From assembly GCA_965216315.1 (NCBI GenBank), contig CBDCFN010000016.1, positions 192,001-256,000 of the forward strand: 64,000 nt of DNA. The letters are read 5' to 3'. The notes beneath the pieces are model-generated. The model ran no database searches, was not told the origin of the DNA, and saw nothing but the letters and a program-made list of their open reading frames with translations. Shown one piece after another: positions 22,566-63,054 of this stretch. The stretch's first letter is position 1, and each line of letters starts with the position of its first letter. This DNA comes from a bacterium. GTDB taxonomy: Bacteria; UBA10199; 2-02-FULL-50-16; JAJFLM01. The translations under genes were made by a program, and so were the position numbers.

Positions 22566-22592
22566 TCATCGGCTTATTTGGGACGACGTTGC
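22566..22592 (-). promoter_or_regulatory. sigma28(FliA)-like promoter of the helicase operon
   Basis: Minus strand GCAAC-N14-GCCGATGA. Confidence 0.65.
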
Positions 22593-22681
22593 TTTCGAAT
22601 TTCTGCAGCCCGGAAATAGCGCATTCCCGAGTATACGGCCTTTGCCTTGTCCTGGGCGGGCCATCGTGCTAGGGGAAATGC

Positions 22682-24115
22682 ATGACTTTCGACCTGCAAA
22701 GCCTGCTTGAAGCCCGCTGGGGCGAAAATTACGCCTTGCATGCCCAGCACCTCAATCCCCAGCTCGTCCGCGTTCTCCAGACTATCGGCTACGACAAGGT
22801 CTATCGCCGGGGAGAGGGGGCCTATTTGTATGATGATCAGGGCCAGGCCTATCTCGATTTTCTGGCCGGCTACGGGGTCTATAACGTCGGACGCAATCAT
22901 CCGGTCGTGAAGCAGGCCGTAAAAGACGCGATCGATATGGACCTGTCTAATATGGTCCAGATGGACTGTGCGCTATTGGCCGGGGTGTTGGCGGAAAAAC
23001 TTGTCGCGTTAACACCCGAAAGGCTCCAAAAAGTTTTCTTTACCAACTCAGGAACCGAGGCCGTTGAAGGGGCACTTAAACTTGCTCGTGGGGCGACCGG
23101 CCGGACGCGCATCGTCTATACCGACCATGCCTTTCACGGCTTAAGTCTTGGTTCGCTTTCGGCGAATGGCTGCGCTGAATTTCGCGAGGGCTTTGGCGAA
23201 CTTTTGACGGGAACGCAAATTCCTTTCAATGATTTGGCTGCACTTGAAAAAGAATTGAGCGCCAAAGATGTGGCGGCCTTTATCGTTGAGCCTATTCAAG
23301 GCAAGGGCGTCCATGTTCCCGCTGATGACTACCTGTCCGGTGTCCAGGCCCTGTGTCGCAAGTATGGCTCCCTGTTTATTCTCGATGAGGTGCAAACCGG
23401 CTTGGGACGCACGGGTAAGATGTTTGCCGGTGAGCATTGGGGCATCGAACCGGATCTCATGACCGTGGCCAAGGCGCTTTCGGGCGGTTTGGTTCCCGTC
23501 GGCGCCATCTTGATGAGCGACTTTGTCTACAAACGAGTATTTTCCAGTATGGAGCGTTGTGTCGTTCATTCGACGACGTTCGGGCGTAACCAGCTCGCCA
23601 TGGTTGCGGGGCTCGCGACGCTCTCAGTTTTAGAAGAGGAAAAGATCATTCAAAATGCCGCACAACGCGGCGGAGAAATCCTCAATCGCTTGCGCGAGCA
23701 ATTGGCAAGCTACGAGATGTTTGCGGACGTGCGGGGTAAGGGGCTCATGCTCGCGATTGAATTTAAGGCGCCTAAGTCACTCAAACTCAAAGTGGCGTGG
23801 AAGGCGATTCATGCGGCGAATGGCGGCCTTTTTGGGCAGATGCTGACGGTGCCGCTGATGGAAAAACACCGCATCCTGACGCAGGTCGCGGGACACAATA
23901 TGGACGTGATCAAGCTCCTGCCGACGCTAGTGCTGGGTGATGCGGAAGTCGAATTATTTTGTCAGGCATTTGAACAAGTGGTTGCGGATTGTCACCGGGT
24001 TCCGGGCGCAGCATGGGAAGTTGGGATGGGTCTTGCTAAGAAGGCCTTAAAAAAACCGGGGAAGGGACGTGATGATGCCCTTGCAACGACAGAAACGGAG
24101 CTAGCATCCTCATGA
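22682..24115 (+). CDS. hpnO: Class III PLP aminotransferase, HpnO-like (aminohopanoid synthesis)
   Basis: [63 protein letters not shown] match my recollection of HpnO. Confidence 0.75.
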
Positions 24116-24777
24116 AGAAAATCATTTTTTTAATTTGTTTTGTCTTGTGTCTTTCGATGTCGGCGTGGGCTGGAGATAAAGACGATCCGGCTGAGAATGG
24201 GGCTGAAGAGAGTTCCGAGTCGACTGAAGAAGCAGCGCTCATTCCGGAGATTTTGGATGTCGATGAGCGTGATGCGGAGATGTACCGCATTGAATTCACG
24301 CCTTATTTTGGGACGTATATTGGCGATGTGACACGGACGACGTATATGCCGGGGGCGATATTGGACTTTCGTCTGACACCCAAACTCTCGTTTGGAGTTG
24401 ATTTTGGCTGGGCACCTCTCTCCGTGGATCGATCGAGCGCCTTTGGTGCGACCGTCACGAATAAGAATCTCTACTCTATTCAGGGTGTGTTAACGCTCAA
24501 TATGCCTGCGGCCTTTCTCTCCGGTAAAAAAGTCGTAGAGACGGATTTCTTTACGACTCTCGGCGGTGGCGTCATGCGTCTCAATAACTCGACGCGCGGC
24601 GATGGTTTCATCGGTGGAGGCATGAAAATGTATTTTAAAACGGTCAAGTGGTTTGGACTTCGCGCCGAGGTCCGGACAGTTTTCTCGTCCGTCAATAATC
24701 CTGCCGGCAGTGATTTTACCACGGATTGGGTCGTCACCGCGGGCCCGACCTTTATGATCCCGCCGCGCCTGTTCTAG
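24112..24777 (+). CDS. Outer-membrane beta-barrel domain protein
   Basis: Signal peptide (SAWA), alternating amphipathic beta strands, terminal Phe. Confidence 0.65.
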   Translation: MKKIIFLICFVLCLSMSAWAGDKDDPAENGAEESSESTEEAALIPEILDVDERDAEMYRIEFTPYFGTYIGDVTRTTYMPGAILDFRLTPKLSFGVDFGWAPLSVDRSSAFGATVTNKNLYSIQGVLTLNMPAAFLSGKKVVETDFFTTLGGGVMRLNNSTRGDGFIGGGMKMYFKTVKWFGLRAEVRTVFSSVNNPAGSDFTTDWVVTAGPTFMIPPRLF

Positions 24778-24830
24778 ATGGTTGGCCCCATTTTTTACGA
24801 AAATCCGTTAATTTGAGGGTCATTTCAATG

Positions 24831-24857
24831 ACAACGGCCCTCGCTTTCGGTCGATAA
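24831..24857 (+). promoter_or_regulatory. sigma28-like promoter of the 1157-aa gene
   Basis: ACAAC-N14-GTCGATAA. Confidence 0.65.
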
Positions 24858-24880
24858 GCGGCTGATTGGATGGATGACAG

Positions 24881-27800
24881 ATGACCTTACTTTTTGCTCA
24901 ATCTGTCATGGGGCTGACGAACGCGGGGATACTTGCGAGCGGTTCGTTTAGTATCAGTCAGGTAGCCTCTCAGTTGGGTGTCCAGGGGGCTGATACGGCG
25001 GAGCGACTCTTAGGTCTCCGCGCCGAAGTCGGTCAGCTACTCGCACGTGATGAGATCCAATCAGCCCTGCCTACTGAACAACGTGCTCCATTAGCCGCCT
25101 TTGCTGCCGGTCAAGAAGTCGAATCCGAAGTACTCAGTACTCCCTTTCGTGAATTGCTCCGCATTAAGAATGAATTCGATCCGGCGCCGGCTGCGGATGA
25201 TGCTGTCCAAGAGCAGGCCGTTGCTATGGTTCGTGCGGTACCGCGAGGGCAGCTCGGGCAACAACTCTTTGGGGCTCCGGTGAATGCCGGATCCAATCTC
25301 GTACAGCGACCGTTGCAACAGTTGATGGCAAATGCGCGTATCGTGACCCCACTACCCGACGGGCGGATCGACGTTCATATACCTAGCCATGGCAGCTATA
25401 CGAGCCAAGACCTATTCGATTTTTACTGTCTTATCTTTCACCAAGCACAGATCTTTCGTGAATATTTATCCGCCTTGCGGGACCAAGGAGCGGACATCAA
25501 TCGACTGGAATTCTACGTGCAGCAATTAGATACCCGTTTACAGGGAGCACTTCGTTTGCTCAACAACAACAATGCGCGCGGGGCGTGGGCCTATCTCTAT
25601 ACGGCGGATAAATGGATGCGTCAGTTTCAGCAGGGGATCATCGATGTCGCACGGGAGGTCGGCTTCCGCATCGATCCGCAGCGCGGGCGCATCCAACGCA
25701 TGCGGAATATGCCGCCGCCTGCCCAGCTTTTTCAGCCCGTAGCCGATGCCGAGCCCGTCATTGCTCCTCAGCGTATTATTGATGTCCAAGGTCCGCCGCC
25801 GGCGGCAGTAACGCCTGAAATTGTTCATGACGTTAGCGCCGACGTTCAGATTCCGCGGCGCTATCTCATCGTTTATGGTTCAGGGCTCGATCACTCACTC
25901 GATTTCAGAGAACACGATCGCTACTATGTTTATCAGGATCCCTCGCCGTATTCTCAAGATCGCATTAATATCTTTTCAAGGCGTGTTAATTCACAGAGCG
26001 GTTTCTACGGTGTTTTGTATCAGGAAGGAGAACAGCTGATTTTTGAAAACCGCTTAGGGCTTAAACAAGTCGTGACGAGTGGTATCCACCCCGGCAGCTT
26101 GCAAGTCGACCGAGGGAGCCGTCAAGTTCGCCGTCTGCGCCAATCCACGCCCAGTAGCCCCTCCATCAGTGTGCTCCGGCGCTCCGGTGTATGGAATTAT
26201 CATGAAGACCGCAGGAGCCTTCAGTTTGCCGTTCATCCGATCAAGGTAGGGATTATGGCGCTGGTCGAGGCGCAGTTGCGCGCGCAAGGACCCCTTTCCG
26301 CTGAAATGTTATCATTGATTAAAGAGCTGTATCAGCAAGAAGAGTCGGAAGTGATGCGCAATAAACGGGGACGTCTGCATCAGTGGTGCATGGCATTTGT
26401 CAATGAAGATGGACCCCCGCACGGCAGCGGTAACTACAAAGGCGTCGCTGAAAAGTTTGGTAGTGAAGAGGTGCTGGCACTGATCCGTGCAATGATGGCG
26501 GCGCTGCCGCAAAGTCGTTTTTATGGGACCTGGTCGCGGGGGATGCGCATCATTAAGGCCCTTTTGCCGCGGGCCTCGAATAAGGCACAGATGGCTCTGG
26601 TGCCGGTGCTGGTCCGTGCCTACCTGCGCCCGATGGAACTGTCGGGAAGCGATATCGATGGGGAGCCTGTGTATGCCTATTTGGAAGAGCAGCGTTTCGG
26701 CAATCTGACGAGCGGGCTCGAAAAGATGTTGAGTGGTTTAGGGATAAGTGGGCGTCTCGTGGGACTGCGCACTATTGCCAGGGAGATGCAGGGCCAGGAG
26801 GAGGTCTCCCAGCTCTGGCTCACGATGCTGAGCAATGTTGCCGGAAGTTTGCCGCCCGACGCCTTGGTAAGGGAAAGAGAACGCACTGATTCCGCCGAGC
26901 TGCGAATGTTTTTACAGGCGTATGAGCATGGCTTTCCGATGTTGGCGCCGCTTTACAATATGTACCTCGCGGATCCCAATCCTCAGGGCTTTATGATCGA
27001 TACGAGCCGTCAGGTGAACTACTTTCGCCGGGGAGGAACGCTTTATTCACGCAATGTGGAGCGGCATCTCGCCTACGCTTATGCGGGTCTTGACAATCCG
27101 GAACAGCTCGATCTGGACAAATTTGTCCGTGAGATCGAAGTCGTCGATTTGCCGACACCCTTTCTGAATGAGTCGTTTACGGTCCGGGTGCCGCGGGTCC
27201 AGGTCTCTCATGCTGATATCGACAAGGGAATCTTGCGTGAGGCTTACGAAGCCGTGGCCCGTGTCTATACTGTCGATCGTTTGAGTGATTATCTGCAGGA
27301 AGTCCTGGCGAGTCTTCGGCAACATGGCCTGCGCAAATTAAGACAAAATATCGAAGCAGTCTTGAGCCGGTATCAAACCGGTGCTCAGACGAGCGAAAAT
27401 AGAGGTGATGTTGTAACTTCCCAGAACGTCGTCTCGATTGCCGGCGAAATCATGCAGCTGTTGGCCGAACAGAAAAAATTAAATAATCAGTCGCGCGAGG
27501 TGCTGGCCAATCTGACGATTGGAACGGCGGCGACGGATGAAGATTCCGCTCATCTGATAGCGACCTTGTCAACCTATCACGATAAAGTTGCGCCTCAACA
27601 ACTTGTCGACATACTGAACGCACTCCGTGAGTTCTATGGCGATAGTGTCGGGACGGTTTTGAGTGCACTTCAACCCGAGCCACGCATTGGATTTATTACT
27701 AAAATGCGAAAGCGTTTGCAGCAGCAGGCCGACCGCATCAAAACGCAGTCAGCTGACATGATGGCCATTGAGTGTGTCCCGTCTAAATCTCAAGCGGATG

Positions 27801-28354
27801 CCTTCGCCGGCTATGTCGGTGAAGATTGTAGTAAGGGTAGGTGGAAGCAAGAGATTAAGCGCAAGGATACTCAGGTCTATCGGATGATTCACAATAACCG
27901 TTTGGTCGGCGTGCTTTATCTTAAGCGTGATACACTCGACGGTAAGGTTGTGCTTAACTTGGGGATTGAGCCGCGGAGTCGTTTCCGTGTCGATCACAAG
28001 GCGTTATTAAAAGGGGTTACGGATCAATTTATCGCGATGATGGAGCAATACGATTATGACTACATCCTTATCTCAGTCAATTCACATGAACGTTCCAATC
28101 GCCCTGATATGAATAAGGCGATAGATGAGCAGTTTACCCGCCGGGTACACTTTAATCAGGCCATCAGCGGTAAGATTTTTTCGGGACATGATTTCCTCGT
28201 CGTGTGGAAGCGACCGCCCGATCTCAATAAAGGACGGCCTCCTCATATTGATGACGCTATTTCCATGAGTGCACGCACGATGCCGCTGAGTGGCGATATG
28301 CCCATAGAGGCGATTCCGCCGGCCCTGCGTCCCTCTGATGACGAGAGTGATTAG
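24881..28354 (+). CDS. Large hypothetical protein (1157 aa) with possible C-terminal GNAT-like fold
   Basis: Long ORF with charge-free N-terminus; C-terminal AGYVGEDC...YRMIHNNRLVGVLYL...LNLGIEP beta-rich segment. Confidence 0.8.
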   Translation: MTLLFAQSVMGLTNAGILASGSFSISQVASQLGVQGADTAERLLGLRAEVGQLLARDEIQSALPTEQRAPLAAFAAGQEVESEVLSTPFRELLRIKNEFDPAPAADDAVQEQAVAMVRAVPRGQLGQQLFGAPVNAGSNLVQRPLQQLMANARIVTPLPDGRIDVHIPSHGSYTSQDLFDFYCLIFHQAQIFREYLSALRDQGADINRLEFYVQQLDTRLQGALRLLNNNNARGAWAYLYTADKWMRQFQQGIIDVAREVGFRIDPQRGRIQRMRNMPPPAQLFQPVADAEPVIAPQRIIDVQGPPPAAVTPEIVHDVSADVQIPRRYLIVYGSGLDHSLDFREHDRYYVYQDPSPYSQDRINIFSRRVNSQSGFYGVLYQEGEQLIFENRLGLKQVVTSGIHPGSLQVDRGSRQVRRLRQSTPSSPSISVLRRSGVWNYHEDRRSLQFAVHPIKVGIMALVEAQLRAQGPLSAEMLSLIKELYQQEESEVMRNKRGRLHQWCMAFVNEDGPPHGSGNYKGVAEKFGSEEVLALIRAMMAALPQSRFYGTWSRGMRIIKALLPRASNKAQMALVPVLVRAYLRPMELSGSDIDGEPVYAYLEEQRFGNLTSGLEKMLSGLGISGRLVGLRTIAREMQGQEEVSQLWLTMLSNVAGSLPPDALVRERERTDSAELRMFLQAYEHGFPMLAPLYNMYLADPNPQGFMIDTSRQVNYFRRGGTLYSRNVERHLAYAYAGLDNPEQLDLDKFVREIEVVDLPTPFLNESFTVRVPRVQVSHADIDKGILREAYEAVARVYTVDRLSDYLQEVLASLRQHGLRKLRQNIEAVLSRYQTGAQTSENRGDVVTSQNVVSIAGEIMQLLAEQKKLNNQSREVLANLTIGTAATDEDSAHLIATLSTYHDKVAPQQLVDILNALREFYGDSVGTVLSALQPEPRIGFITKMRKRLQQQADRIKTQSADMMAIECVPSKSQADAFAGYVGEDCSKGRWKQEIKRKDTQVYRMIHNNRLVGVLYLKRDTLDGKVVLNLGIEPRSRFRVDHKALLKGVTDQFIAMMEQYDYDYILISVNSHERSNRPDMNKAIDEQFTRRVHFNQAISGKIFSGHDFLVVWKRPPDLNKGRPPHIDDAISMSARTMPLSGDMPIEAIPPALRPSDDESD

Positions 28355-28425
28355 CTGCGGGTTGGCGAAAAATTATCCAAGTTATTCCAGCAAGTTAGCT
28401 CGCCTTCACCGGTCCTTTTTTTCAC

Positions 28426-28452
28426 ACAACAATTTTCGAGAAGTTGCGATAA
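28426..28452 (+). promoter_or_regulatory. sigma28-like promoter of the Cys-repeat lipoprotein
   Basis: ACAAC-N14-TGCGATAA. Confidence 0.6.
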
Positions 28453-28507
28453 GCGCCCCGATATGGCAACGCCTGGGAGGACACCGGGCAACAAGGGGTT
28501 CCAAGCT

Positions 28508-29698
28508 ATGAATAAGATAAAATTGAAGATTTTTTTTCAAATAACGGCCTTCGTTTTAACGGTAGGATTATTGAGCGCGTGCGGTGACGATCAAGGGATT
28601 CGCGAGCCGCTCTTAGAGCCTGAAGCGGAGACAACAATATCGCCCTCGGTTGGGACCAATAATTTTGCCGTCGTTCGCGGGAACTATTTTCTTTTAGCCA
28701 GCAACTGTCCTCAAGATGACTCTGCTTTGCGCGTGTCTCAGGAACAAGAATCCGTCTTTATGCAAGGTGGGTTTACTTTTAATGACCCTGATGAATTGCT
28801 CGTCGGCTTTGTCAATGAAACGGGCCTGGTCCGTTTTTTCGGTGACAATAAGAACTCGGATCCCAATTGCACGGCTCAGGTTGATGCGGGTGTAATGCGC
28901 GGATCTTGTACCTATACCGATGGAATTGAGCAGACGACATGCCGCTATGTGTATAGTACCCTGATCGAAGGCGATTATCAGCCGGTCTTCAATGAATGCG
29001 AGGGTGACGGAACCGCCCTGGAAATACGCCAGACAGGCAGCGAAGTGACACTGACCGACGGATTTGACTACATTAAGACGGGGGGTACCGAAACGCACAA
29101 CGGCGTTATTGAGAACGGCGAGATCGCTTTTAATATTGACGTGATTAGCAATAGCGGCGCCATTACGGATCCCATCACAACGGACCAGCACAACTGTGAA
29201 GGGGTAGTCAGTGGCAACCTCTTTAGTGGTCGTTGCCGGGACCTAACCGTTGAGCCGGCGACTGTCTGTACTTTTGCCTTTGAAAATACGCTTAGAACAG
29301 CCGGCGTTGACTTGAATGATGACGGTTTATTTCCTTCTCCGGCAATTACGCCGAATCCCACCCCGACAGTCGTGTCAAATATTGCCGGGACTTATGCGCT
29401 GGTCAGTAACGACTGCGAAGACGACGGGGGCAATATCGAGATCTCTCAGGTCGGCAGCACGCTTGGTTTTATCGGTGGGTTTGATTATCAGTCCCCGGAT
29501 CCTGATATCTATGCGGGCAGCATGATCGATAATGCGACGTTCAATTTTTCAGCGTTGGGACCAACCGAGCGGGCTTTTTGCTCAGCGGCCGTTATCTTCG
29601 CTCCGAATGGCGTGAATGGCTTTACCGGCAACTGCAACGTCGTGGACGCGAGCAGCAATCCGGTTGAGACGTGTGCCTTCTCTTATACGAAGATATAA
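28508..29698 (+). CDS. Lipoprotein with three 4-Cys beta-rich repeats
   Basis: MNKIKLK...LLSAC lipobox; three copies of G.Y....N.C....I.Q.....GF...C...G.C....C.(F/Y). Confidence 0.8.
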   Translation: MNKIKLKIFFQITAFVLTVGLLSACGDDQGIREPLLEPEAETTISPSVGTNNFAVVRGNYFLLASNCPQDDSALRVSQEQESVFMQGGFTFNDPDELLVGFVNETGLVRFFGDNKNSDPNCTAQVDAGVMRGSCTYTDGIEQTTCRYVYSTLIEGDYQPVFNECEGDGTALEIRQTGSEVTLTDGFDYIKTGGTETHNGVIENGEIAFNIDVISNSGAITDPITTDQHNCEGVVSGNLFSGRCRDLTVEPATVCTFAFENTLRTAGVDLNDDGLFPSPAITPNPTPTVVSNIAGTYALVSNDCEDDGGNIEISQVGSTLGFIGGFDYQSPDPDIYAGSMIDNATFNFSALGPTERAFCSAAVIFAPNGVNGFTGNCNVVDASSNPVETCAFSYTKI

Positions 29699-29716
29699 CC
29701 GCCGCTGAAAACAACG

Positions 29717-42964: not shown

Positions 42965-43390
42965 GTGGAATTTAAGCAGCACACGATTCAACTGGCGACG
43001 ACCCAGCCGATTGAGATCATCAATATAACAGATTCAGTTCAGGCCTTTGTTAAGGAAGCGGGACTGACTCATGGCCTGCTTCATGTCGGTAGTGCCCATA
43101 CCACTGTTGGACTTGCCATCAATGAAGAATGTTCTGAGTTACGTAAAGACTGGCTAGCTTTTTTGCAGCGCCTGGCTCCCGCTGGCGCTGATTACTTTCA
43201 TGACCGTGTCGCCGTTGACGGGCGCCCGAATGCCCACAGCCACTTGTTATCCACCGTGTTGCCGAGCCAGCTGACGATAGTCCTGCAGGATGGGGTACTC
43301 GCTCTCGGGACCTGGCAGTCGGTGTTTGCGATAGATCTCGATGGGCCACGACCCAATAGGAAAATTCATTTAACTGTGATGGGTGCGTAG
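42965..43390 (+). CDS. yjbQ: YjbQ/UPF0047 family protein
   Basis: HTT.GL.INE, NAHSHL, LGTWQSVFAIDLDGPR. Confidence 0.9.
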   Translation: MEFKQHTIQLATTQPIEIINITDSVQAFVKEAGLTHGLLHVGSAHTTVGLAINEECSELRKDWLAFLQRLAPAGADYFHDRVAVDGRPNAHSHLLSTVLPSQLTIVLQDGVLALGTWQSVFAIDLDGPRPNRKIHLTVMGA

Positions 43391-44600
43391 GGGCGTGTTA
43401 TCTGAACAAGACATTCCGGCTTTTTTCGCCTCCCGCTCCGATCTCAAGCTCGAAGACTACGCCATCTTTGAATACCGGTTTGAAACGGATAAAGATCCCA
43501 AGCAGGCGGCGGCTTCTTTATGTTGTGAGCAAAGCACCGCCCAGTGGCAGCGTCCCGGGGTTGATGAAGATTTTCGGCCTTTGCATGGGGCGAAGGTGTT
43601 GGAACTGACCCCTCACCCCGACCCTCTCCCTCAAGGGGAGAGGGGGCTCAAAAAGTATAAGGTCGTTATAGCTCACCCGCACCGCAACTTTGGTCCTCGC
43701 ATTCCTAATCTGTTGTCCGCAGCAGCGGGAGAGGGACCGTTTTATTGCCCCGGGATTAGCCGTATTAAGTGGACGGACCTGGAATTGCCGCGGTCTTACC
43801 TGAATGAATTCGAGGGACCCCAATTTGGTCTCAAGGGGGTTCGCGAACGCTTGGGAGTCAGTGATCGGCCGATTTTTTTCGGGGTGGTTAAACCAAATAT
43901 CGGTCTCAAGCCGGAAGATTTTGCGACGATAGCTGATGAGAGTTGGTGTGGCGGCCTTGATATCGCCAAAGACGACGAGATGTTGGCGGATACGGACTGG
44001 TCGCCGTTAATAGCACGGACGCGTCTGGCTGTCACTGCCAGTCAGCGGGCCGCGCAGGAGACCGGTCAAAAAAAGTTTTTTCTTCCCAATATTACGGATG
44101 AAGTGGATCGGATCCAAGACCTGTATCATCAAGTGACTGCAGCCGGTGCGCCAATGGTGATGATCAATGCGATCATGACCGGTATCAGTGCGCTACGAGC
44201 GTTGCGCCGCTACGCACAGGTACCCATTGTCAGCCACTTCACGGGAACATCGGTGTTCTCGCGCTTACCTCATTACGGGATGAGTTCGCTGGTGGCGACT
44301 AAACTACAGCGTTTGGCCGGCGCCGATATCATTATACTCGCGGGCTTTGGAGAACGGATGGGGTGTTCGGATGAAGAAGTCCTCGCAAATGTCGGTGCGT
44401 GCCTCCAGGAATGGGGCCCGTTGCTGCCTGTATTGCCGGTTCCGGGAGGAAGCGACAGTGCGGAGACTCTTGCCGGTGTCTATCAAAAGATCGGTCATGA
44501 AAATTTTGGATTCATTTGTGGTCGCGGTGTCTTTGGCCATTCCGATGGTCCCAAAGCAGGAGCGCAGAGTCTTCATGATGCCTGGGAACAGATTCGGTGA
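43383..44600 (+). CDS. RuBisCO-like protein (form IV), resembling the Chlorobaculum tepidum IV-Photo RLP
   Basis: EQSTAQW, RPIFFGVVKPNIGL, LDIAKDDEMLAD, NITDEVD, TKLQRLAG, LPVPGGSDSA, GRGVFGH.DGPKAGA; lacks RuBisCO K177 and loop-6 K334. Confidence 0.92.
   Translation: MRRGVLSEQDIPAFFASRSDLKLEDYAIFEYRFETDKDPKQAAASLCCEQSTAQWQRPGVDEDFRPLHGAKVLELTPHPDPLPQGERGLKKYKVVIAHPHRNFGPRIPNLLSAAAGEGPFYCPGISRIKWTDLELPRSYLNEFEGPQFGLKGVRERLGVSDRPIFFGVVKPNIGLKPEDFATIADESWCGGLDIAKDDEMLADTDWSPLIARTRLAVTASQRAAQETGQKKFFLPNITDEVDRIQDLYHQVTAAGAPMVMINAIMTGISALRALRRYAQVPIVSHFTGTSVFSRLPHYGMSSLVATKLQRLAGADIIILAGFGERMGCSDEEVLANVGACLQEWGPLLPVLPVPGGSDSAETLAGVYQKIGHENFGFICGRGVFGHSDGPKAGAQSLHDAWEQIR
43609..43646 (+). repeat. 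REP-like palindromic element lying in-frame within the RLP gene
   Basis: CCCCTCACCCCGACCCTCTCCCTCAAGGGGAGAGGGGG with CCCTCTCCC/GGGAGAGGG stem; translated as PHPDPLPQGERG. Confidence 0.7.
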
Positions 44601-46990: not shown

Positions 46991-47711
46991 CAGCCTAATT
47001 ATATTAGGGTTGTGTAGTTGTGCGGGTCTTCGCATGATCGAACGTCCCCAGGCGACTTCGTCTGCCGTGCGGCAAGGGGCGCAGTGGTATGAAGTGTTGT
47101 GGCAGCGTGATCAGGCCATTCAAACTCTTAGGGCGTCGGCACGAGTCCGTGTGAGTAGTGGGATTTTCTCCAGAGCGGTGGAGCAGGCGTTGATCGTTAA
47201 AAGGCCTAAGAATATGCGGCTTGATAGCTATACGGTCTTGGGGAATTTAATTCATCAATTAGTGCTTCGTAACGGTTCTTTATGGGTTTATGATGCAACG
47301 CGCGAACGCTTCGATAAAGATCGTGATGCGGAGCGACTACTGGAGGAAAACCTGGGTCTCGGCTTATCTATTGATGATATGGTCAGTATTTTAGTGGGGA
47401 GCGTTCCGTTGGAAGAGAGGACTGATTACCTCGCCGTTACAAAAAAACAGGGGGATGTGCTGCGAGGACTTAATTCGCAGGTTCTTATCGATCCTCAGAC
47501 GCAGCTGCCGCAGCGTTTTTCCGGCTATACGCGCCACAATGAGCTCTATGAGGTTCGCTATAGTCATTACCGGGAGGTGGCAGGGATCTCCTTCCCTCAT
47601 CGCATTGCGGTGGCGCTCCATGAGCCGCGAATTTCGCTTGAAATAAGCTTTAAAGATGTTGATATCAATATTCCTGTATCGGACGAAAAGTTTGCACATG
47701 AAGTTCATTAA
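46962..47711 (+). CDS. LolB/DUF4292-like lipoprotein
   Basis: Lipobox LCSC; RP..MRLD; VRYSHYREVAGISFPHRI; follows the TPR gene. Confidence 0.6.
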   Translation: MIRLKRHFISSLIILGLCSCAGLRMIERPQATSSAVRQGAQWYEVLWQRDQAIQTLRASARVRVSSGIFSRAVEQALIVKRPKNMRLDSYTVLGNLIHQLVLRNGSLWVYDATRERFDKDRDAERLLEENLGLGLSIDDMVSILVGSVPLEERTDYLAVTKKQGDVLRGLNSQVLIDPQTQLPQRFSGYTRHNELYEVRYSHYREVAGISFPHRIAVALHEPRISLEISFKDVDINIPVSDEKFAHEVH

Positions 47712-49278
47712 ATTGATTGCCATCTTTTTTCTTACGAGCGGGATATTTTCGTCGGCCTGCAACTTTCAGGTTCCGACCGATCCAAAAGTGCTCGTATGGC
47801 ATTTGTCGGCCGAACCGGACACGCTTAATCCGATTACAGCAACCGACGTCTATGCCTCGCGCATTAATACTTTTCTATTTGATAGTCTTATCGAACGAAA
47901 CAATGAGACTTTAGCCTTTGAGCCGAAGCTTGCCGAGCGCTGGGAAATATCCGCCGACAAACTCGATTTTACTTTTTATCTGCGCAAGGGGATCAAATGG
48001 CACGATGGAACGCCGGTCACAGTTGAGGATATCAAGTATTCGTTCGACCGCATTATGGATCCTAAGGTCGATGCGCCTCATATGAGGGTTTATTATCAAG
48101 AGATCGAAAGTGTGACCAAAGTGGCTCCGGGTGTCGTGCGTTTCCGGTATAAGCGACCGTATTTTATGGCCCTTAACTTCTGTGGCGGCATCCCAATCTT
48201 GCCAAGCCATCTTTTTTCAAAAGATGAAAATTTCAACCAGAGTCCTCTAGGGCGCGACCCCGTTGGGAATGGGCCGTATCGCTTTGTGCACTGGAAGACA
48301 GGTCGTTCGATTCGCATTGAACGCAACCCTGATTATTGGGGGCCGAAGCCGGAGATAAGCAATATTGAATTTCGCATTGTCGGTGAAGATACCGTTTCTC
48401 TGCAGATGCTTAAGAAAGGACAGCTGGACCTTGCCGGAATGCGCCCTATCCAGTGGGTCATGCAAACCAATTCGAAGAAATTTGCGCGAAAGTTTGAGAA
48501 GTACAAATACTATACACCGGGGTATACGTTTATTGCGTGGAATATGCGGCGGCCTTATTTTAAGGATGCCCGGGTTCGCCGTGCTCTCACACAGCTGATT
48601 AACCGCAAAGCGATTTTGGAGAAGCTCAGTTTCGGTTTGGGCAAAGTTGTGACTGGTCCGTTTTATACGGAAGGCATTGATTACGACAAGACAGTCAAGC
48701 CTCTCGCCTATGAACCGGAACAATCTTATAAGTTGTTAAGTGAGGCCGGCTGGGAGGATAAGGATAATGATGGTGTGCGCGAAAAAGATGGCGTGCCTTT
48801 CGCATTTGAGTTTTTAATCCCTTCAGGTCGACGTTTTACGGAACAATTATCGACAATTGTTAAAGAGGACTTTAGGAAGGCCGGCATTGATGTCACGATT
48901 CATAAGTTGGAGTGGGCTTTGTTTACACAGAAATTAAATGATCGTAGCTTTGATGCCGTCACTCTAGGCTGGTCTTTTGGTTATGAGCAAGATCCCTATC
49001 AGGTCTGGCATAGCTCGCAGGCCGAACGCGGTTCTAATTTTGTAGGTTTCGAAGATAAAGAGGCTGATGAGTGGATTGAAAAAGGTCGAGTGACTTTTGA
49101 TCGGGAGGTACGGGCAGGGCTTTATCATAAATTGCATCGAAAGATTCACGAGTTGCAGCCTTATACTTTTCTTTTTGCGTCACCGTCGCTCGTGGCGCTT
49201 AATCGACGGTTTCAAAATGTAAAAGTCTATCCGATTGGCCTTGATCCGCTTGAGTGGACATTGAAGGAGGAAATGTGA
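47698..49278 (+). CDS. Peptide ABC transporter substrate-binding lipoprotein (family 5)
   Basis: Lipobox SSAC; EPDTLNP, PKLAERWEIS.D...FTFYLRKGIKWHDG.P.T.ED. Confidence 0.93.
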   Translation: MKFIKLIAIFFLTSGIFSSACNFQVPTDPKVLVWHLSAEPDTLNPITATDVYASRINTFLFDSLIERNNETLAFEPKLAERWEISADKLDFTFYLRKGIKWHDGTPVTVEDIKYSFDRIMDPKVDAPHMRVYYQEIESVTKVAPGVVRFRYKRPYFMALNFCGGIPILPSHLFSKDENFNQSPLGRDPVGNGPYRFVHWKTGRSIRIERNPDYWGPKPEISNIEFRIVGEDTVSLQMLKKGQLDLAGMRPIQWVMQTNSKKFARKFEKYKYYTPGYTFIAWNMRRPYFKDARVRRALTQLINRKAILEKLSFGLGKVVTGPFYTEGIDYDKTVKPLAYEPEQSYKLLSEAGWEDKDNDGVREKDGVPFAFEFLIPSGRRFTEQLSTIVKEDFRKAGIDVTIHKLEWALFTQKLNDRSFDAVTLGWSFGYEQDPYQVWHSSQAERGSNFVGFEDKEADEWIEKGRVTFDREVRAGLYHKLHRKIHELQPYTFLFASPSLVALNRRFQNVKVYPIGLDPLEWTLKEEM

Positions 49279-57596: not shown

Positions 57597-57613
57597 TTGG
57601 CACTGTCTTTGCA
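57597..57613 (+). promoter_or_regulatory. sigma54 promoter of the lipoprotein metallopeptidase
   Basis: TTGGCACTGTCTTTGCA, a near-consensus -24/-12 site with an AT-rich stretch upstream. Confidence 0.8.
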
Positions 57614-57756
57614 GCATTCAGGGCAGTGTGAGTGTTCACGTTTTCGTCGTTCGGGGAAGCAAATGGGCAGCAAAAGGACGACGGAAGCAGCCGCTCTTGG
57701 GTTTGGGGGAGAGGAAGAGGGCAGACAAAGGAGCTTACTAGCTGAAGGGGGCGATA

Positions 57757-59418
57757 ATGAATCGGGCAAAACGTGGGCATGAGTGGGGAGGGCTCACGGT
57801 TGGAATCATAGCTTTCATGATGATGACGGTCGTTGGTTGTATGGGAGGGTCAGACACGACCCAACCGGCAGTGCAATCAGCGCCACTCAACCAACCAGGC
57901 GAAAACGCGATTAATGGAATGAATTTGGGGGAGGTGCAGTTCTTGGATTTTGGTAGTGGGCAGGGAGTTGATCTGAATTTCGATTCGAATTCGGCAGAAG
58001 ATACCTATCTTGCCGTGTTGCACTCGAATAATGTTCGTGAAGGGGCCTTCAATGTGGTCATTCAAGGCTCTTCTTCGGCAACCGTACCGACGCAATCGTA
58101 TCAAACTCTCGAATTAGGCGATTCTCCTCTAGATGATGAAGTGGATGACAACCCCATGCATGAACTTTCACGTGCCTGGTCGGCTGTTTATGCCAGCAGT
58201 CCCGATGTCGTTCCGGTTGAACCGCGTCACTCGGCTATGGCGGCGATGACGGTCGGAGATCAAGTGGGTCAAACCGAGACTTTCCGTGTTCTCAATTCAC
58301 TGAGTTCAGTGACAAACTATACAACGGTCACGGGTCGTTTGCGTTATATCGGTGATGATATCCTTGTCTATGTTGATACGGCGATGGATGACGATGAATA
58401 TCTTACGGATGCTGAGATTGATGAGATGGCCAGTAATTTTGAAACGCATTCAATGGCCATTGAAAGAAATCTTTTTGGACGCGAATCGGATGTCAATGCG
58501 GATGGCAAAGTCACTATTTTGATGACGCCGGTTCTGAATGAGATGTGCCTACCTACCGGCATCGTAACGGGGTTTTTCTTTCCTGGAGACCTTTACGAAC
58601 AAGATAGCAGCAATCCGGCTTCCAATGCACAGGAGATATTCTATACGCTCGTACCGGATCCGGAGGGACGGTTCTGTCGCGCCTTAGGTCTCGAGTTTAC
58701 GATGGATAATATCCTGCCAGGCGTATTGGCCCATGAATATCAACACATGATCAGCTTTAATCAGCATGTCTTTCTTAAGGGTGGATCGACTGAAGAGCCA
58801 TGGCTCAATGAATCCCTCTCGCATCTGGCCGAAGATATTACCGGACACGGGCTTGAGAACTATTCGCGCGTCAAACTTTTCTTGGATCGCGCGAATACGA
58901 CGACTCTTATTCCTAACGGCCTGCCCTCATTGGCCGAACGAGGAATGGGTTATCTCTTCCTTCGTTACCTTTATGAGCAAGTCGCGGACAATGAAGCTTT
59001 CATGAATTCCATGCTCATGACGGATAAGACGGGTGTCGGAAACATCGAAGCCGCCTTGGCGAAGGCCGGTGCAAGTTTTTCAGAATTCAGTCAGGGCTTT
59101 GCTCATTGGCAGGTGGCACTGGTTTTAAGTGGAACCGGACTGACCAATGATAATCGATATAATTATCAAGCGCGCCGTATCGACGAAGTGACCGGCAATT
59201 ATAAAGGTATTTGTATCAAATGTGACTCTAATGACGGTCGTGGGACCATTCTCGATGGGCCTGTCATGGCGGAGATCAATAGTTTACCGCTCACTGTCGA
59301 TTTGGAGTCGGCCGGAACGAGATTTTTAAAGATTAAGGCGCCTGGGACCTTGTTGTCGATTAACGGTTCCAGCGGAATTAATTTGGGAGGTGCACTTATT
59401 CGACTGGAGGCAAACTGA
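57757..59418 (+). CDS. Lipoprotein zinc metallopeptidase (gluzincin, M30/hyicolysin-like)
   Basis: Lipobox VVGC; FG.ESDV.ADGK..IL, GFF...DL, LAHEYQHMI, WLNESLSHLAE. Confidence 0.85.
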   Translation: MNRAKRGHEWGGLTVGIIAFMMMTVVGCMGGSDTTQPAVQSAPLNQPGENAINGMNLGEVQFLDFGSGQGVDLNFDSNSAEDTYLAVLHSNNVREGAFNVVIQGSSSATVPTQSYQTLELGDSPLDDEVDDNPMHELSRAWSAVYASSPDVVPVEPRHSAMAAMTVGDQVGQTETFRVLNSLSSVTNYTTVTGRLRYIGDDILVYVDTAMDDDEYLTDAEIDEMASNFETHSMAIERNLFGRESDVNADGKVTILMTPVLNEMCLPTGIVTGFFFPGDLYEQDSSNPASNAQEIFYTLVPDPEGRFCRALGLEFTMDNILPGVLAHEYQHMISFNQHVFLKGGSTEEPWLNESLSHLAEDITGHGLENYSRVKLFLDRANTTTLIPNGLPSLAERGMGYLFLRYLYEQVADNEAFMNSMLMTDKTGVGNIEAALAKAGASFSEFSQGFAHWQVALVLSGTGLTNDNRYNYQARRIDEVTGNYKGICIKCDSNDGRGTILDGPVMAEINSLPLTVDLESAGTRFLKIKAPGTLLSINGSSGINLGGALIRLEAN

Positions 59419-59432
59419 TTACAATATTTGAA

Positions 59433-59551
59433 GTCGTTCGAAAAGTTCCCAGCTGTGAGGCAGGGCGACGAAGTGTGACACAGGCGTACTGATACGTACG
59501 CCGAGGAGCCACTAAGGAGCCCAACGATGCAGATGGTGGTTTTCGAACGAC
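59433..59551. mobile_element. MITE-like non-autonomous element (119 bp)
   Basis: Perfect 12-bp terminal inverted repeats GTCGTTCGAAAA / TTTTCGAACGAC; internal hairpin GGCGTAC..GTACGCC; no ORF. Confidence 0.6.
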
Positions 59552-59561
59552 GGAGTTTGCC

Positions 59562-59793
59562 CGACACTGGCCTAACCCTCCCTAAGTGGGCCAGTAACCC
59601 CAAGCCAGGTTCCCCCCCGATTCCCCGTTGGGGGGGAACCGTTTGGCGGAACGAAAGCACAGCTTCCGTTCCACCATAGTCAGGGGGAAGAAAAACTCTC
59701 TCCCCCCTAACGACCCCCCATCGTGGGTTAAATTGGGGTAAAGTTCTTTAACACGCCGAAGAGGGGCGGACCCGAGGAAGGCCGCCCCTTTTT
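59562..59793 (+). ncRNA. Candidate structured small RNA (tandem hairpins, C-rich loops)
   Basis: Four or more consecutive GC-rich stems (59566-59595, 59608-59640, 59644-59676, about 59678-59713) ending in a terminator. Confidence 0.4.
59759..59793 (+). terminator. Intrinsic terminator
   Basis: AAGAGGGGCGG, loop, CCGCCCCTTTTT. Confidence 0.8.
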
Positions 59794-59823
59794 ACTATCA
59801 CAAATAATTTTCAGGATTGTTGA

Positions 59824-62800
59824 CTACGCTTTTTCGCGTTTGCGTTGCTCGCGCCAGTTGCGGAAGCGCCGGAAGATGTTGAGGAATCTTCCCAGGCGGG
59901 TGTACCAAGGAAGTGCCATCGGTGCTTGTGAGTCGGATAGAGCTAGGGCATCGACGAAGTATTCGACGCGGTTGCGGCCGTTACGCTTGGCGCGATACAG
60001 GACCGTATCGGCGTTGCTGATGGCAACGCTAAGCGATGTTTTCTTTTCCTTTACTTCGGAGAGCTCGTCGCCGCTACCATTGCCGCCGTTTTCGATGATG
60101 CGGAAGGGAGCGACGCCAAGGCTGACCGTGATATCTAGGGAGACAGGTTTTCCGCCGGCATTCGAAGTGATCGTATTCTGCATGATACGCTCGCGGATGC
60201 GCTCGGCCATTTTCTTGGCCCCTTCTGCGCCACAGTGGCGAGCGACGAGACAAAACTCTTCACCGCCGTAGCGGGACACGATATCGGTCGGGCGCGCTTC
60301 ATCACGGATCATGTCGGTGACCTGGCGGAGGACGTCGTCGCCGACGGGATGGCCGTGGTTGTTGTTGACACGGCTGAAGTGATCAATGTCGATCATGATA
60401 ACATAGTGTTCTTTAACTCTCCCATCCGGATAACGATCTTCGCCACGGGGGTTCAACATGCTCCGTTCCAGGACACCATTTTGACTCATCAGCTTACCAT
60501 AGGTTTCGAGCCCGGTTTTATCGTCGTGCTCGGAGTCATGGAGGTGGATCGAGGCAGCCGTTGCATGGATGTCGGCTAGATCCAGGGCTTCCGCCAATAA
60601 AGCACGGACGTGGGTCGGAACAGTGGGATCAAAGAGTATCGGTGACTGGCGCAGTTCTTTTAGCCGCCTGTGTTGGGCCTTTTTATGCTCGTCGGCTCTA
60701 ATTCGCTCTTCTTCGCTTTGCTCCGGCTCATTGCTAATCTTTTCAAGCTCCCCACTGCGCGCCAATTGATTGCTGAAGAGACGGGTAAAGCCTTCATAGT
60801 CAGGACGCAACGAGAAACGTAAGGGAAGCGATTCATGTGTTCGGCTATAACTATCGAAAAACTCGCGCCCAATGCGCGTGCGATCTTCTAAGAGAAATTC
60901 CAGCAGTTCCCAGGCGTGTTTGACTTCATTCAGTTCAGCCTGTTTGTCGGGAGAGAGGCTGATATTTCGTTCTTGGAGAAAGGCATCAAAATCTTCGAAG
61001 ACGCGACGCCGTACTTCGGGGGATTCAAAATCAAATCCAATGTAAGGCATGAATGTCATTCCCTGGTCGCGGGCTTTCATGTCGAGAGCGTTGACGCCGA
61101 GTTGATATAGGAAGGCAATGATGCGTTGCATGGCGCGCCGGCTCAGCCCCGCATCCGTGCTTTGTTTTTTACGCGCGGGGTCCATCTCAGTTCGGATGCT
61201 TTCCCCCCAGGCGACCCAGTGTTCGCCGGGTTGAGGTAATTTGGGGATCCAACCTTCGAGGCTGGTTGCCAACGTGCCGTCTTCGGCTGAAATTTCAGCA
61301 CTGATATGGACACCGTTGGTATTGAAGCGTTTGAGTTTTACGCGGCTGGTGACATGGCCGCGAATATCCGTTCCGAATGCGTCACGGATGTCGCGAACCG
61401 AGACACGGCGGTGAAACAATTCTTCGAGGAGTTGCTGGGTTTCGTCTGAGTCGAACGGAAGATCGAGTTCATCCCCGATATCGATATGTTCAATCCGAGG
61501 CGGTTCCGCTGTCTTGACAACGCGCCTTGTTGCTTCATCCCAGTTTTCTTTGTAGACAAACTGCCGAATCCACCGGGCAACTTGAGTCGAGCTGGACCGG
61601 CCGATTACAAAATACATCGCCTGTTTTATGTCAATTTTAGTCGGATCAGCCGTGGGTGTGCCGTTGAGATAAGCCGGGAACGAAGCGAGGCGCACATCAA
61701 ATCCCTTGTTGGCGAGTTGCCAGGCTCTTCGCTCGGCTTCTTCAAGCGTGTCGGTAAAGACATGGACTTCGCGGGCATGAGCTGGACGATCCGTCGGGCG
61801 AAACCAATGATTGAATATGGCTTGTGCTTCCTCAGGGTCATTTTCCCAGAGTTGCGGTATGACCTTGCCAATTTCGTGCAATAAACTCTCGACGTTACGA
61901 CCGCGACCGACCATTCGTGTAGGGGCACGCAATACAATGGGCGAATTACCGTTTTCAGTTGTGATCGGTCTGGTAATAAGGCGCAAACGATCCGTTGCGG
62001 TTTGCATCTGAGTGTTATCAAGTTGGGCACCCCGCGTTTTGTCAATATCCTTGAGGGCGCTGAGTATACGCACCAGGAGGTCCGGTGGAACGACGATGGG
62101 ACTAATCTGATTCGTCCTCCGTTGCTGACGTATATGGGCGTACTCTAGATTTTGAATTTCTTCGCTGAGATCCGCGTAAGGATAATAGCTATTAAAGGCC
62201 TGTTTGGTTTGTTCAAGTAAACGTCTTCGCGGTGCGTCGCCCAGATTGGTCCAATCACTGAAGCTTAATGCGAGTTGCCGGACCCACGGATATTTGGAGG
62301 CATCAATCGCGGGCAAGGCTATTTGGATATCGCGAATCAGTGTCGCGTTTTCGGCTAGAGTTGGCGTCATGGCAAGGGCGCGCCGGTATTGGTCAATTTC
62401 CGGTTGAAATTCTTCAAAGCCTTCGATCGGTCTGAGGAGCTGTTCGGCCATATCGAGGGTTAGGCGGCGGACGGCGACGGTCGTATGCGCCCAATTGCCT
62501 AGAAAACGAATGATTTCGATGGAATGAAATGCCCGGTCGAATTCTTTTGCAGTTGCATTTGGTCCCAGTTGCGCGCGCGTTCGAGCCTTCATCAATGTTT
62601 GGACGGCCGTATTGACTAGCGGCGGTACTTGGCGCGGACCTGAATAATCAGCCGCGGCGATATGCCGATCAATACGTTGTGCCAGCGGACTCAAGGGTTG
62701 GTGTCCGCGCAAAGTCGCATTGGTATCATCGAGCATCTGCGTGCGCGTCGACTGCGGCAATTGATTGATGGTGCCCAGCGCCGTGCTGAATGTCGCGAGA

Positions 62801-62868
62801 TTATTAATCAGTCCGACATTGGGTACACTGGTCGCAATCGAATAGGGTAGGGGCATGAGTTGTACCAT
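59824..62868 (-). CDS. 1014-aa GGDEF protein with long novel N-terminal region and possible GNAT-like domain
   Basis: MIDIDHF..VNNNHGHPVGD, RPTD I-site, RYGGEEF, AD..LYRAKRNGRNR; GLSRRAMQ...LGV..LDMKA...G..F....GFDF is GNAT-like. Confidence 0.85.
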   Translation of the reverse strand: MVQLMPLPYSIATSVPNVGLINNLATFSTALGTINQLPQSTRTQMLDDTNATLRGHQPLSPLAQRIDRHIAAADYSGPRQVPPLVNTAVQTLMKARTRAQLGPNATAKEFDRAFHSIEIIRFLGNWAHTTVAVRRLTLDMAEQLLRPIEGFEEFQPEIDQYRRALAMTPTLAENATLIRDIQIALPAIDASKYPWVRQLALSFSDWTNLGDAPRRRLLEQTKQAFNSYYPYADLSEEIQNLEYAHIRQQRRTNQISPIVVPPDLLVRILSALKDIDKTRGAQLDNTQMQTATDRLRLITRPITTENGNSPIVLRAPTRMVGRGRNVESLLHEIGKVIPQLWENDPEEAQAIFNHWFRPTDRPAHAREVHVFTDTLEEAERRAWQLANKGFDVRLASFPAYLNGTPTADPTKIDIKQAMYFVIGRSSSTQVARWIRQFVYKENWDEATRRVVKTAEPPRIEHIDIGDELDLPFDSDETQQLLEELFHRRVSVRDIRDAFGTDIRGHVTSRVKLKRFNTNGVHISAEISAEDGTLATSLEGWIPKLPQPGEHWVAWGESIRTEMDPARKKQSTDAGLSRRAMQRIIAFLYQLGVNALDMKARDQGMTFMPYIGFDFESPEVRRRVFEDFDAFLQERNISLSPDKQAELNEVKHAWELLEFLLEDRTRIGREFFDSYSRTHESLPLRFSLRPDYEGFTRLFSNQLARSGELEKISNEPEQSEEERIRADEHKKAQHRRLKELRQSPILFDPTVPTHVRALLAEALDLADIHATAASIHLHDSEHDDKTGLETYGKLMSQNGVLERSMLNPRGEDRYPDGRVKEHYVIMIDIDHFSRVNNNHGHPVGDDVLRQVTDMIRDEARPTDIVSRYGGEEFCLVARHCGAEGAKKMAERIRERIMQNTITSNAGGKPVSLDITVSLGVAPFRIIENGGNGSGDELSEVKEKKTSLSVAISNADTVLYRAKRNGRNRVEYFVDALALSDSQAPMALPWYTRLGRFLNIFRRFRNWREQRKREKA

Positions 62869-62874
62869 GGCCGC

Positions 62875-62901
62875 TTTTCGGCGTAAATTTGCGAAAGTTG
62901 T
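62875..62901 (-). promoter_or_regulatory. sigma28-like promoter 6 nt from the ATG (probably leaderless mRNA)
   Basis: Minus strand ACAAC-N14-GCCGAAAA-gcggcc-ATG. Confidence 0.65.
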
Positions 62902-63027
62902 GCGAATAGGGAGCTATATTTATCCAGATTCGCAGGGATTCGAAAAAAATGGCTCATTCAGCCTAAAAAAAGGGCAAATGTTCGAAAGTTTTTGAAAAAT
63001 AAGGTCTTTTTAGGGACTTTTCATGAG

Positions 63028-63054
63028 ACAACTTTTCTCGCCGGCGTCCGAAAC
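63028..63054 (+). promoter_or_regulatory. sigma28-like promoter 6 nt from the ATG (probably leaderless mRNA)
   Basis: ACAAC-N14-TCCGAAAC-ggacct-ATG. Confidence 0.6.

Follow-up and report, generated by a model that had tools for sequence, protein, structure and literature searches.

The class 3 promoters read by FliA in Escherichia coli, Salmonella and Pseudomonas have the form TAAAGTTT-N11-GCCGATAA. In the open complex of Pseudomonas aeruginosa sigma-28, the -10 element GCCGATAA lies at -15 to -8 and the -35 element is TCTAAAG, according to the structural account of that complex (PMC12784957). Here we analysed a stretch of 64,000 nucleotides (nt), called the window throughout (positions 192,001 to 256,000 of contig CBDCFN010000016.1, assembly GCA_965216315.1), from a member of the bacterial phylum UBA10199. 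It carries five intergenic copies of a promoter-like motif that shares with the FliA promoters the -10 box, the N11 spacer and the TTT tail of the -35 box, but has GCAAC, and not TAAAG or TCTAAAG, as its -35 core. The candidate reader of the motif, a sigma factor that we call P0001, also differs from FliA: its recognition helix is substituted, its gene is unlinked to flagellar late genes or FlgM, and it coexists with a canonical FliA in flagellated relatives.

The nearest described case is the FliA regulon of Bdellovibrio bacteriovorus, in which TTAAG-N16-CCGATA is found at 92 of 140 attack-phase promoters and a global regulatory role has been proposed for FliA (Karunker et al. 2013, PMC3627812). 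That regulon resembles the one reported here in size (more than 100 promoters), in its many non-flagellar or uncharacterised genes and in belonging to a neighbouring lineage. In Bdellovibrio, however, a single FliA also serves the flagellum through a TAAG-type -35 box, whereas our data point to a dedicated paralog with a changed -35 box, in organisms that are mostly flagellin-less and carry the sigma gene in a type III secretion-like cluster. Streptomyces WhiG and Chlamydia sigma-28 are, like P0001, FliA-family sigma factors with a non-flagellar use; both read a canonical TAAA -35 box and serve small regulons. Chlamydia combines its sigma-28 with a type III secretion system, as two accounts of that genus state (PMC10597470, PMC12282069).

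Our analysis suggests that the five sites belong, as promoters, to a large regulon that spans the phylum and depends on a non-flagellar sigma-28 paralog with a changed -35 preference, a reading to which we give a probability of about 0.78. P0001 is taken as the reader because it is ubiquitous in the phylum, because elimination in genomes with three sigma factors favours it, and because its helix and the -35 box have changed together; its binding at the sites, the start sites and the conditions of expression are what we infer. New here are the changed -35 box with a matching helix change, a sigma factor separate from the flagellar FliA that coexists with it, a sigma gene placed within a flagellin-less type III-like cluster, the spread across the phylum and the orphan-rich regulon. 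Among the papers listed in literature searches, judged by titles and the starts of abstracts, no title described a GCAAC-type sigma-28 promoter, the P0001 clade or any of these points.

Results

Five sites and their genes

The strict pattern RCAAC-N16-CGAWRM has six matches in the window, against a mean of 0.75 in 100 dinucleotide shuffles, none of which reaches six. Five of the six are intergenic, each oriented at the next gene, and are listed below with those genes. All site scores, here and throughout, are bits of a refined weight matrix; protein lengths are in amino acids (aa).

22566..22592, minus strand: predicted promoter GCAAC-N16-CGATGA, a strict match of 19.5 bits, intergenic and oriented to gene 19989-22508
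19989..22508, minus strand: 839-aa ResIII/Helicase_C/DEAD-like protein (Pfam), with a 57-nt leader
24831..24857, plus strand: candidate promoter ACAAC-N16-CGATAA, the weakest of the five; a strict match of 10.5 bits, intergenic
24881..28354, plus strand: 1157-aa orphan protein, no Pfam family
28426..28452, plus strand: predicted promoter ACAAC-N16-CGATAA, 20.9 bits, conserved at a same-family ortholog
28463..29698, plus strand: 411-aa orphan, no Pfam family, start codon 10 nt past the box
62875..62901, minus strand: predicted promoter ACAACTTT-N11-CGCCGAAAA, the best match in the window at 26.1 bits; ATG at 62868, 6 nt past the box
59824..62868, minus strand: 1014-aa GGDEF protein (Pfam GGDEF), leaderless-looking mRNA
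63028..63054, plus strand: predicted promoter ACAACTTTT-N-TCCGAAAC, 17.5 bits, divergent from 62875..62901; ATG at 63061, 6 nt past the box
63061..63834, plus strand: 257-aa orphan, P0007, no Pfam family, leaderless-looking mRNA

A first-pass annotation of this DNA had reported these five sites, and its coordinates and strands are all correct, as are the orientation of each intergenic site toward its downstream gene and the ATG exactly 6 nt past the -10 box at the last two (62868, minus; 63061, plus). Its description of the targets as five orphan transcription units is right for three of the five first genes, which have no Pfam family, and wrong for the helicase-like and GGDEF genes. Five units are also far too few: as set out below, the regulon comprises at least 160 promoters and is phylum-wide.

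The 411-aa gene is the sole window target with an ortholog usable for footprinting. That ortholog, in G002 (46% identity), has a 20.9-bit site with its ATG 7 nt past the box, and in the alignment of the two upstream regions the -35 and -10 blocks are kept while the spacer varies. A second block, AAGTTATTCCAGCAAGTTA / AAGTAATTTCAATAAGTTA, is conserved between window positions 28381-28400 and the G002 ortholog, about 30 nt 5' of the -35 box, and may be an operator. The 411-aa protein itself has a lipoprotein-like signal (...LTVGLLSAC) behind 16 extra N-terminal residues.

Searches for orthologs in relatives indicate that the window targets turn over fast. Nothing was found in five relatives for the first 400 aa of the 1157-aa protein, which has no ortholog usable for footprinting and whose ATG (24881) is 23 nt past the box of site 24831. 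P0007 has one match in five genomes, at 30% identity in G010, at a locus where no motif reaches 9 bits. Upstream of the helicase-like gene, an ATG 5 nt past the box of 22566..22592 (minus strand) opens just a 43-codon open reading frame (ORF), out of frame with that gene.

A genome-wide motif with one fixed spacing

The genome, G000 (2.96 Mb, 16 contigs, 98% complete), was covered with a crude set of the longest non-overlapping ORFs of at least 80 aa, giving 2514 genes and leaving 7.4% of the genome intergenic. Since the sites were seen before the pattern was drawn up, the independent tests are a spacing scan, the relatives and reversed-pattern controls.

The strict pattern has 197 matches genome-wide, 116 of them intergenic. 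Raw counts are inflated because a long repetitive coding stretch (G000:C16:684566-691225) holds 18 near-identical in-frame copies of ACAACTGTCC(G/C)GCCGATCCGGCGAAGA, one of them differing further, that fit the strict pattern by accident. When the gap in CAAC-N(gap)-CGAWRM is varied, intergenic matches number 119 at gap 16, 29 at 17, 30 at 18, 10 at 19 and 8 at 22, with 2-5 at each of the remaining gaps within 10-23. The consensus is c-GCAACTTT-N11-GCCGATAA, the -10 box of 198 intergenic sites reading G-C-C-G-A-T-A-A; beyond the searched pattern there is information at C/A before the G, at TTTT after CAAC and at GC before CGA. The -10 element GCCGATAA and the 11-nt spacing between the 8-mers are those of sigma-28, whereas the -35 box is GCAAC(TTT) and not TAAAG(TTT), the TTT tail alone being common to both. 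This is the combination that the first-pass annotation had proposed from its five sites, a sigma-28 spacing and -10 box with a different -35 box.

An iterated weight matrix places 182 sites of at least 14 bits in intergenic DNA and 99 in genes, that is, 182 of 281 within 7.4% of the genome (binomial p ~6e-132), and 162 of the 182 lie at most 150 nt 5' of a same-strand gene. The motif is thus far more frequent upstream of genes than chance would give, which is what the reading in the first-pass annotation requires. At 10-12 bits there are 20 intergenic and 194 genic matches, and most of these intergenic ones could be chance. CAAC-N16-CGATAA is enriched in 30 of 30 relatives, with 25-80 matches per genome against 0-8 for the reversed control. 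Canonical sigma-70 promoters are also present in G000 (21 of 38 matches to TTGACn-N17-TAnnWT are intergenic), so the motif is not the housekeeping promoter.

One 50-kb run (G000:C16:2159181-2208403) holds 17 consecutive, mostly family-less genes, each with a strong GCAACTTTCGCAA...CCGATAA promoter, and includes two small paralog families and two TSP3-repeat proteins.

A divergent sigma-28 paralog

G000 encodes five sigma-70-family genes: RpoD (587 aa), an RpoH-like factor (317 bits to rpoH_proteo), two extracytoplasmic function (ECF) factors, and P0001 (275 aa, G000:C16:350583-351410, about 95 kb past the window end), which supplies the sigma-28-family factor that the reading in the first-pass annotation requires. 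The best NCBIfam model of P0001 is FliA_WhiG TIGR02479 (133.1 bits), then WhiG (127.3) and FliA (122.8 and 109.6). Pfam recognises region 2 (53 bits) and region 4 (44.7 bits), and the alignment of P0001 to WhiG and FliA structures covers its full length, their region 3 included, WhiG 6pfj being the best match in the PDB. From these comparisons P0001 appears to be a divergent member of the sigma-28 (FliA/WhiG) family or a sister clade of it.

Orthologs of P0001 with 56-84% identity are present in 91 of 93 phylum genomes and in all 63 high-quality ones. Its relatives in the databases are metagenome-assembled genomes labelled Deltaproteobacteria, UBA10199, Myxococcota or Bdellovibrio, where the protein is annotated as "sigma-70 family", or as "FliA" by an automatic pipeline.

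The helix of region 4.2 reads LSKSW(T/V)SRLH in 45 of 45 aligned orthologs, with an invariant W followed by T or V. The canonical helix, (V/I)(S/T)ESRxSQ(L/I)H, is found in the FliA and WhiG proteins of the PDB and, with minor variants, in eight flagellar-type paralogs of the same phylum. For P. aeruginosa sigma-28, the structural account has the helix Gln contacting bases at the upstream end of the -35 element and Q228A impairing function (PMC12784957). That Gln is an Arg in P0001, by our own alignment, which assumes a 5-residue offset between the numbering of the paper and the deposited chain. A substituted helix of region 4.2 fits a shift in -35 preference from TAAAG to GCAAC, while the W-x-P-R that P0001 retains in its region 2/3 segment is consistent with an unchanged -10 box.

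The sigma factor complements of the relatives narrow the choice of reader. Neither ECF query finds a match in 12 of 31 genomes. Five genomes (G003, G007, G009, G021 and G030) have exactly three Sigma70_r2 genes, namely RpoD, the RpoH-like ortholog (39-43% identity) and the P0001 ortholog, and G028 has the same three, assigned by ORF size only. All six are enriched in the motif, with 25-51 matches against 0-2 for the control.

A separate flagellar sigma-28 in relatives

Flagellin was found in only 12 of the 93 phylum genomes. Most of these flagellin-bearing genomes have a second FliA paralog, with 25-32% identity to P0001 and the canonical helix, which adjoins the flagellin genes and an extra, higher-scoring FlhA. 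We also considered whether the CAAC motif precedes flagellin in flagellated relatives and rejected this, CGAWAM occurring once in 12 upstream stretches, without CAAC. Instead, five of eight resolved flagellin starts (in G075, G070, G022, G088 and G014) have T(C/A)AAGTTT-N11-nTCCGTYnA upstream. These flagellin promoters thus show a canonical -35 box and a -10 core of CCGT instead of CCGA, and in place of the DW-PRS of canonical FliA the flagellar paralogs carry D(V/I/A)LPRS, two of the eight differing further. P0001 and the flagellar paralog may, judging by these residues and boxes, have diverged in opposite promoter halves. Two sigma-28-type systems therefore coexist in the phylum, one flagellar, the other non-flagellar and universal.

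Targets are mostly orphan genes

Behind the intergenic sites of at least 14 bits stand 161 distinct first genes, and a simple operon rule extends the set to about 274 of 2514 genes (~11%). No Pfam family (at an E-value of 1e-5 or better) is found in 116 of the 161 (72%), compared with 42 of 137 (31%) among control genes, random non-targets from the same loci (odds ratio 5.8, p 7e-13), and 115 of the 161 are singletons by BLASTP. The claim of the first-pass annotation that this is a dedicated sigma-28-family regulon of lineage-specific genes is supported by the excess of family-less targets, together with the presence of P0001.

Among the targets with families, those for signalling are hybrid histidine kinases, GGDEF proteins, a nucleotide cyclase, Ser/Thr kinase and RelA/SpoT; the others include SLT, M23, OmpA, subtilase and patatin proteins, LamG, FGE-sulfatase and TSP3 repeat proteins, and DUF4423 regulators. 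Housekeeping targets are few (SMC, UvrA, Ddl, GDH, RtcB), and the targets are not motility genes. DUF4423 genes account for two of the targets.

Leaderless geometry and uncharged N-termini

Given the -10 placement at -15 to -8 in the account of the P. aeruginosa complex (PMC12784957), the geometry of the motif fits transcription starting about 7 nt past the box. In 58 of the 161 targets the start codon, ATG in 50 of them, lies 5-10 nt past the box, and so about a third of the targets look, from their start codon positions, to be on leaderless mRNA. Sigma-70-like intergenic sites (TTGAC-N17-19-TAnnWT) have a start codon 5-12 nt downstream in 14 of 43 cases, which suggests that leaderless mRNA is characteristic of this genome and not of the CAAC promoter.

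The leaderless-class proteins have unusual N-termini. No D, E, K or R occurs before residue 15 in 43 of the 58, against 57 of 864 controls with an ATG preceded by a Shine-Dalgarno sequence (p = 2e-33), and the median position of the first charged residue is 25. Among 17,699 ATG-initiated ORFs of at least 100 aa, 92 have a promoter at leaderless distance; 71 of these 92 are uncharged, compared with 1421 overall. The uncharged stretch is about 20-30 residues long, rich in Ser, Leu, Ala and Thr, and often contains ..LLA[AS]S... In the window, P0007 has no D/E/K/R before about residue 30 (read from its translation), and the 1014-aa GGDEF protein, which has four paralogs among the targets and is one of the enzyme-like carriers of an uncharged N-terminus, has its first charged residue at position 42. 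A nucleotide-level avoidance of charge codons was considered and rejected: GA is not avoided over codon boundaries and synonymous codons are mixed, which argues that the constraint acts on the protein. Ordinary Lys/Arg lipoprotein signals are found among leaderless genes as well, which sets the uncharged class apart. A crude signal-peptide rule (Lys/Arg plus a hydrophobic stretch) recognises 19 of 161 targets and 631 of 2283 controls; the low count is partly due to the uncharged N-termini and is not taken to mean that the targets are not exported.

The same unselected procedure was applied across genomes to the first 20 motif matches listed for each, and in G000 to all matches, counting open starts 4-11 nt past the box and uncharged N-termini.

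G001 (same family): open start in 6 of 20, uncharged N-terminus in 5
G003: open start in 7 of 20, uncharged N-terminus in 0
G030: open start in 7 of 20, uncharged N-terminus in 2
G023: open start in 5 of 20, uncharged N-terminus in 0
G000 (all matches): open start in 23 of 90, uncharged N-terminus in 15

A phylum-wide signature of leaderless starts with uncharged N-termini was thereby rejected, G000 and G001 having it and G003, G023 and G030 hardly. The uncharged N-terminal signature is a family-level feature.

The sigma gene lies in a type III secretion-like cluster

P0001 is encoded outside the window, within a flagellum-related type III secretion-like cluster (G000:C16:339170-360515). The cluster encodes YscJ/FliF-like, weakly FliG_C-like, FliH/SctL, type III secretion ATPase, YscO/FliJ and FliK-like proteins, as well as FliM, FliN, FliO, FliP and FliR-like proteins; no more than 10 kb away are genes for an FHIPEP (FlhA) protein and for two FHA proteins of the YscD type. 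Among 47 related loci, the order sigma, FliG-like, FliH holds in 43 and 40, and a YscJ-like gene lies upstream in 28, many contigs being cut. FHIPEP is present in 91 of 93 phylum genomes, and the cluster version differs from the true flagellar gene sets that a few members of the phylum possess.

No secretin was found near the cluster, and G000, at 98% completeness, has no match to the flagellin (Flagellin_N), rod/hook (Flg_bb_rod) or FlgM families. Small ORFs beside the sigma gene, examined as possible anti-sigma factors, show little conservation (0, 1 and 18 of 47 loci), and the one downstream looks by eye more like a rod- or needle-type protein. The motif is absent from the cluster genes themselves. 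Strong motifs (21.7 and 22.9 bits) precede the two orphan genes that immediately follow the cluster, and one of these genes encodes an HExxH protein.

Other features of the window

9466..20032, minus strand: three large same-strand ORFs (444, 748 and 2399 aa) after the helicase-like gene, no Pfam family
48323..48349, plus strand: sixth strict match, inside ORF 47656-49278, 12.3 bits
13578..13607, minus strand: motif-like site inside the 2399-aa ORF, 16.6 bits, an internal promoter or chance

The three ORFs, with their overlapping or abutting coordinates, are probably co-transcribed with the helicase-like gene, and the sixth strict match is probably a chance match. Amid housekeeping genes, window positions 43383-44597 (plus strand) encode a protein of 405 aa that has the catalytic domain of the RuBisCO large chain (E = 2e-42) and could be a RuBisCO-like protein.

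Discussion

Several observations weigh against reading these sites as promoters of a P0001-dependent regulon, and those that favour a particular rival are given with it below. The curated cut-off of the FliA_WhiG model is 189.6 bits, which P0001, at 133.1, does not reach, and Pfam does not recognise a region 3 in the protein. Start codons, the label "intergenic" and the operon estimate are approximate, given the crude longest-ORF gene calls. At 24831 the site has 10.5 bits only, and its flanking positions are off consensus.

This last site is the main concern of the alternative that survives best, namely that the promoter class is real and some of the window sites, above all 24831, are chance matches. 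Such scores are common by accident (~15 of the 20 intergenic matches in the 10-12 bit bin are expected by chance), and the gene at 24881 has no ortholog usable for footprinting. The site nevertheless has the exact strict core and spacing, for which intergenic strict matches outnumber off-spacing ones ~30:1, and it is correctly oriented, 23 nt before an ATG. We consider a chance origin of one or more window sites possible, though not the better guess.

That the RpoH-like, sigma-32-type factor reads the motif is improbable. Elimination does not remove this factor, an ortholog of which (39-43% identity) is encoded by each of the five minimal-sigma genomes tested. The sigma-32 -10 consensus is CCCCATnT, and its CCCCAT shares CC-AT with GCCGAT and is loosely like GCCGATAA. 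Both points count against P0001 as the reader. The full 8-base -10 box and the N11 spacing are nevertheless those of sigma-28, and the targets do not look like a heat-shock regulon: none of the 161 first targets belongs to a heat-shock-typical chaperone or protease family. Genes resembling GroEL, ClpB and Lon, found through short peptide motifs, mostly score at most 6.4 bits between -300 and +20, a Clp-like gene with 10.3 bits being the best among the heat-shock-type genes checked. The promoter of the rpoH-like gene itself is TTGACA-N17-TAGTAT.

An ECF factor as the reader would account for two features that many ECF consensus sequences share, the AAC of the -35 box and the CG of the -10 box. 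Sigma-E-type promoters read GGAACTT-N16-TCnnA, their -35 box resembling GCAACTTT (GCAACTT is near GGAACTT), and G000 encodes two ECF factors. Moreover, GCAACTTT-N11-GCATCTAA (C16:2109870-2109922) is placed 4 nt 5' of the ATG of an ECF sigma gene resembling RpoE/SigW. The same -35 box may thus serve another sigma, the ECF factor at C16:2109922, which also counts against our assignment; with its sigma-E-like -10 box, that site may be an autoregulated ECF promoter. But its -10 box, GCATCTAA, lacks the CGA core, whereas the motif has the long sigma-28 -10 box. The motif also occurs in genomes in which no ECF factor was found: 12 of 31 have no match to the ECF queries, and six of these have just three Sigma70_r2 genes, none ECF-sized. 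We therefore regard an ECF reader as very unlikely. The least likely alternative is that the motif is no promoter at all and is a transcription-factor binding site or a dispersed repeat, for which the second conserved block ~30 nt 5' of the -35 box at 28426 might speak, and which is countered by a pair of short boxes whose spacing is fixed and whose spacer is not conserved, strict orientation toward genes, a narrow start-codon peak 5-10 nt downstream and a downstream box identical to the sigma-28 -10 element.

We favour a model in which P0001, a lineage-specific FliA/WhiG paralog, would read c-GCAACTTT-N11-GCCGATAA, having retained the canonical sigma-28 -10 element and spacing while its -35 preference moved from TAAAG to GCAAC. 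The holoenzyme would start transcription about 7 nt past the box, in about a third of cases at or adjoining the start codon, which would yield a leaderless mRNA. A regulon of this kind would comprise at least 160 promoters, mostly of fast-evolving orphans, together with signalling enzymes and envelope proteins.

A further suggestion, tentative and on balance doubtful, is that the sigma factor and the type III-like machine form one system on the model of the flagellar hierarchy, in which the sigma factor would switch on late substrates with an uncharged N-terminal signal. For the family to which G000 belongs, they would comprise dozens of orphans along with GGDEF, PFK-like, RelA/SpoT-like, diacylglycerol-kinase-like and HExxH proteins, made from leaderless mRNAs. 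The suggestion arises from the uncharged leaderless class, the constraint at the amino-acid level and the two strong-motif orphans directly after the cluster. N-termini of type III and flagellar late substrates are Ser-rich and without acidic residues, and the uncharged N-termini resemble them; an atypical Sec signal or a membrane anchor would fit equally well. Against a link to secretion count the near absence of the signature in G003, G023 and G030 and the secretin not found near the cluster.

The motif provides a testable promoter code for roughly a tenth of the genes, mostly of unknown function, in an uncultured phylum, and its targets can be grouped as one co-regulated programme. P0001 would be a natural sigma paralog orthogonal to its ancestor, with three or four residues of the -35 helix changed and -10 reading kept, which is useful for understanding how domain 4 of sigma-28 reads DNA and for the design of orthogonal sigma/promoter pairs. 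The position of the sigma gene in its cluster suggests that an unstudied type III-like machine and many orphan proteins are linked in their regulation. If the secretion-linked interpretation is true, the regulon would be an effector or "attack-phase" arsenal in a small-genome, uncultured and possibly predatory or host-dependent phylum.

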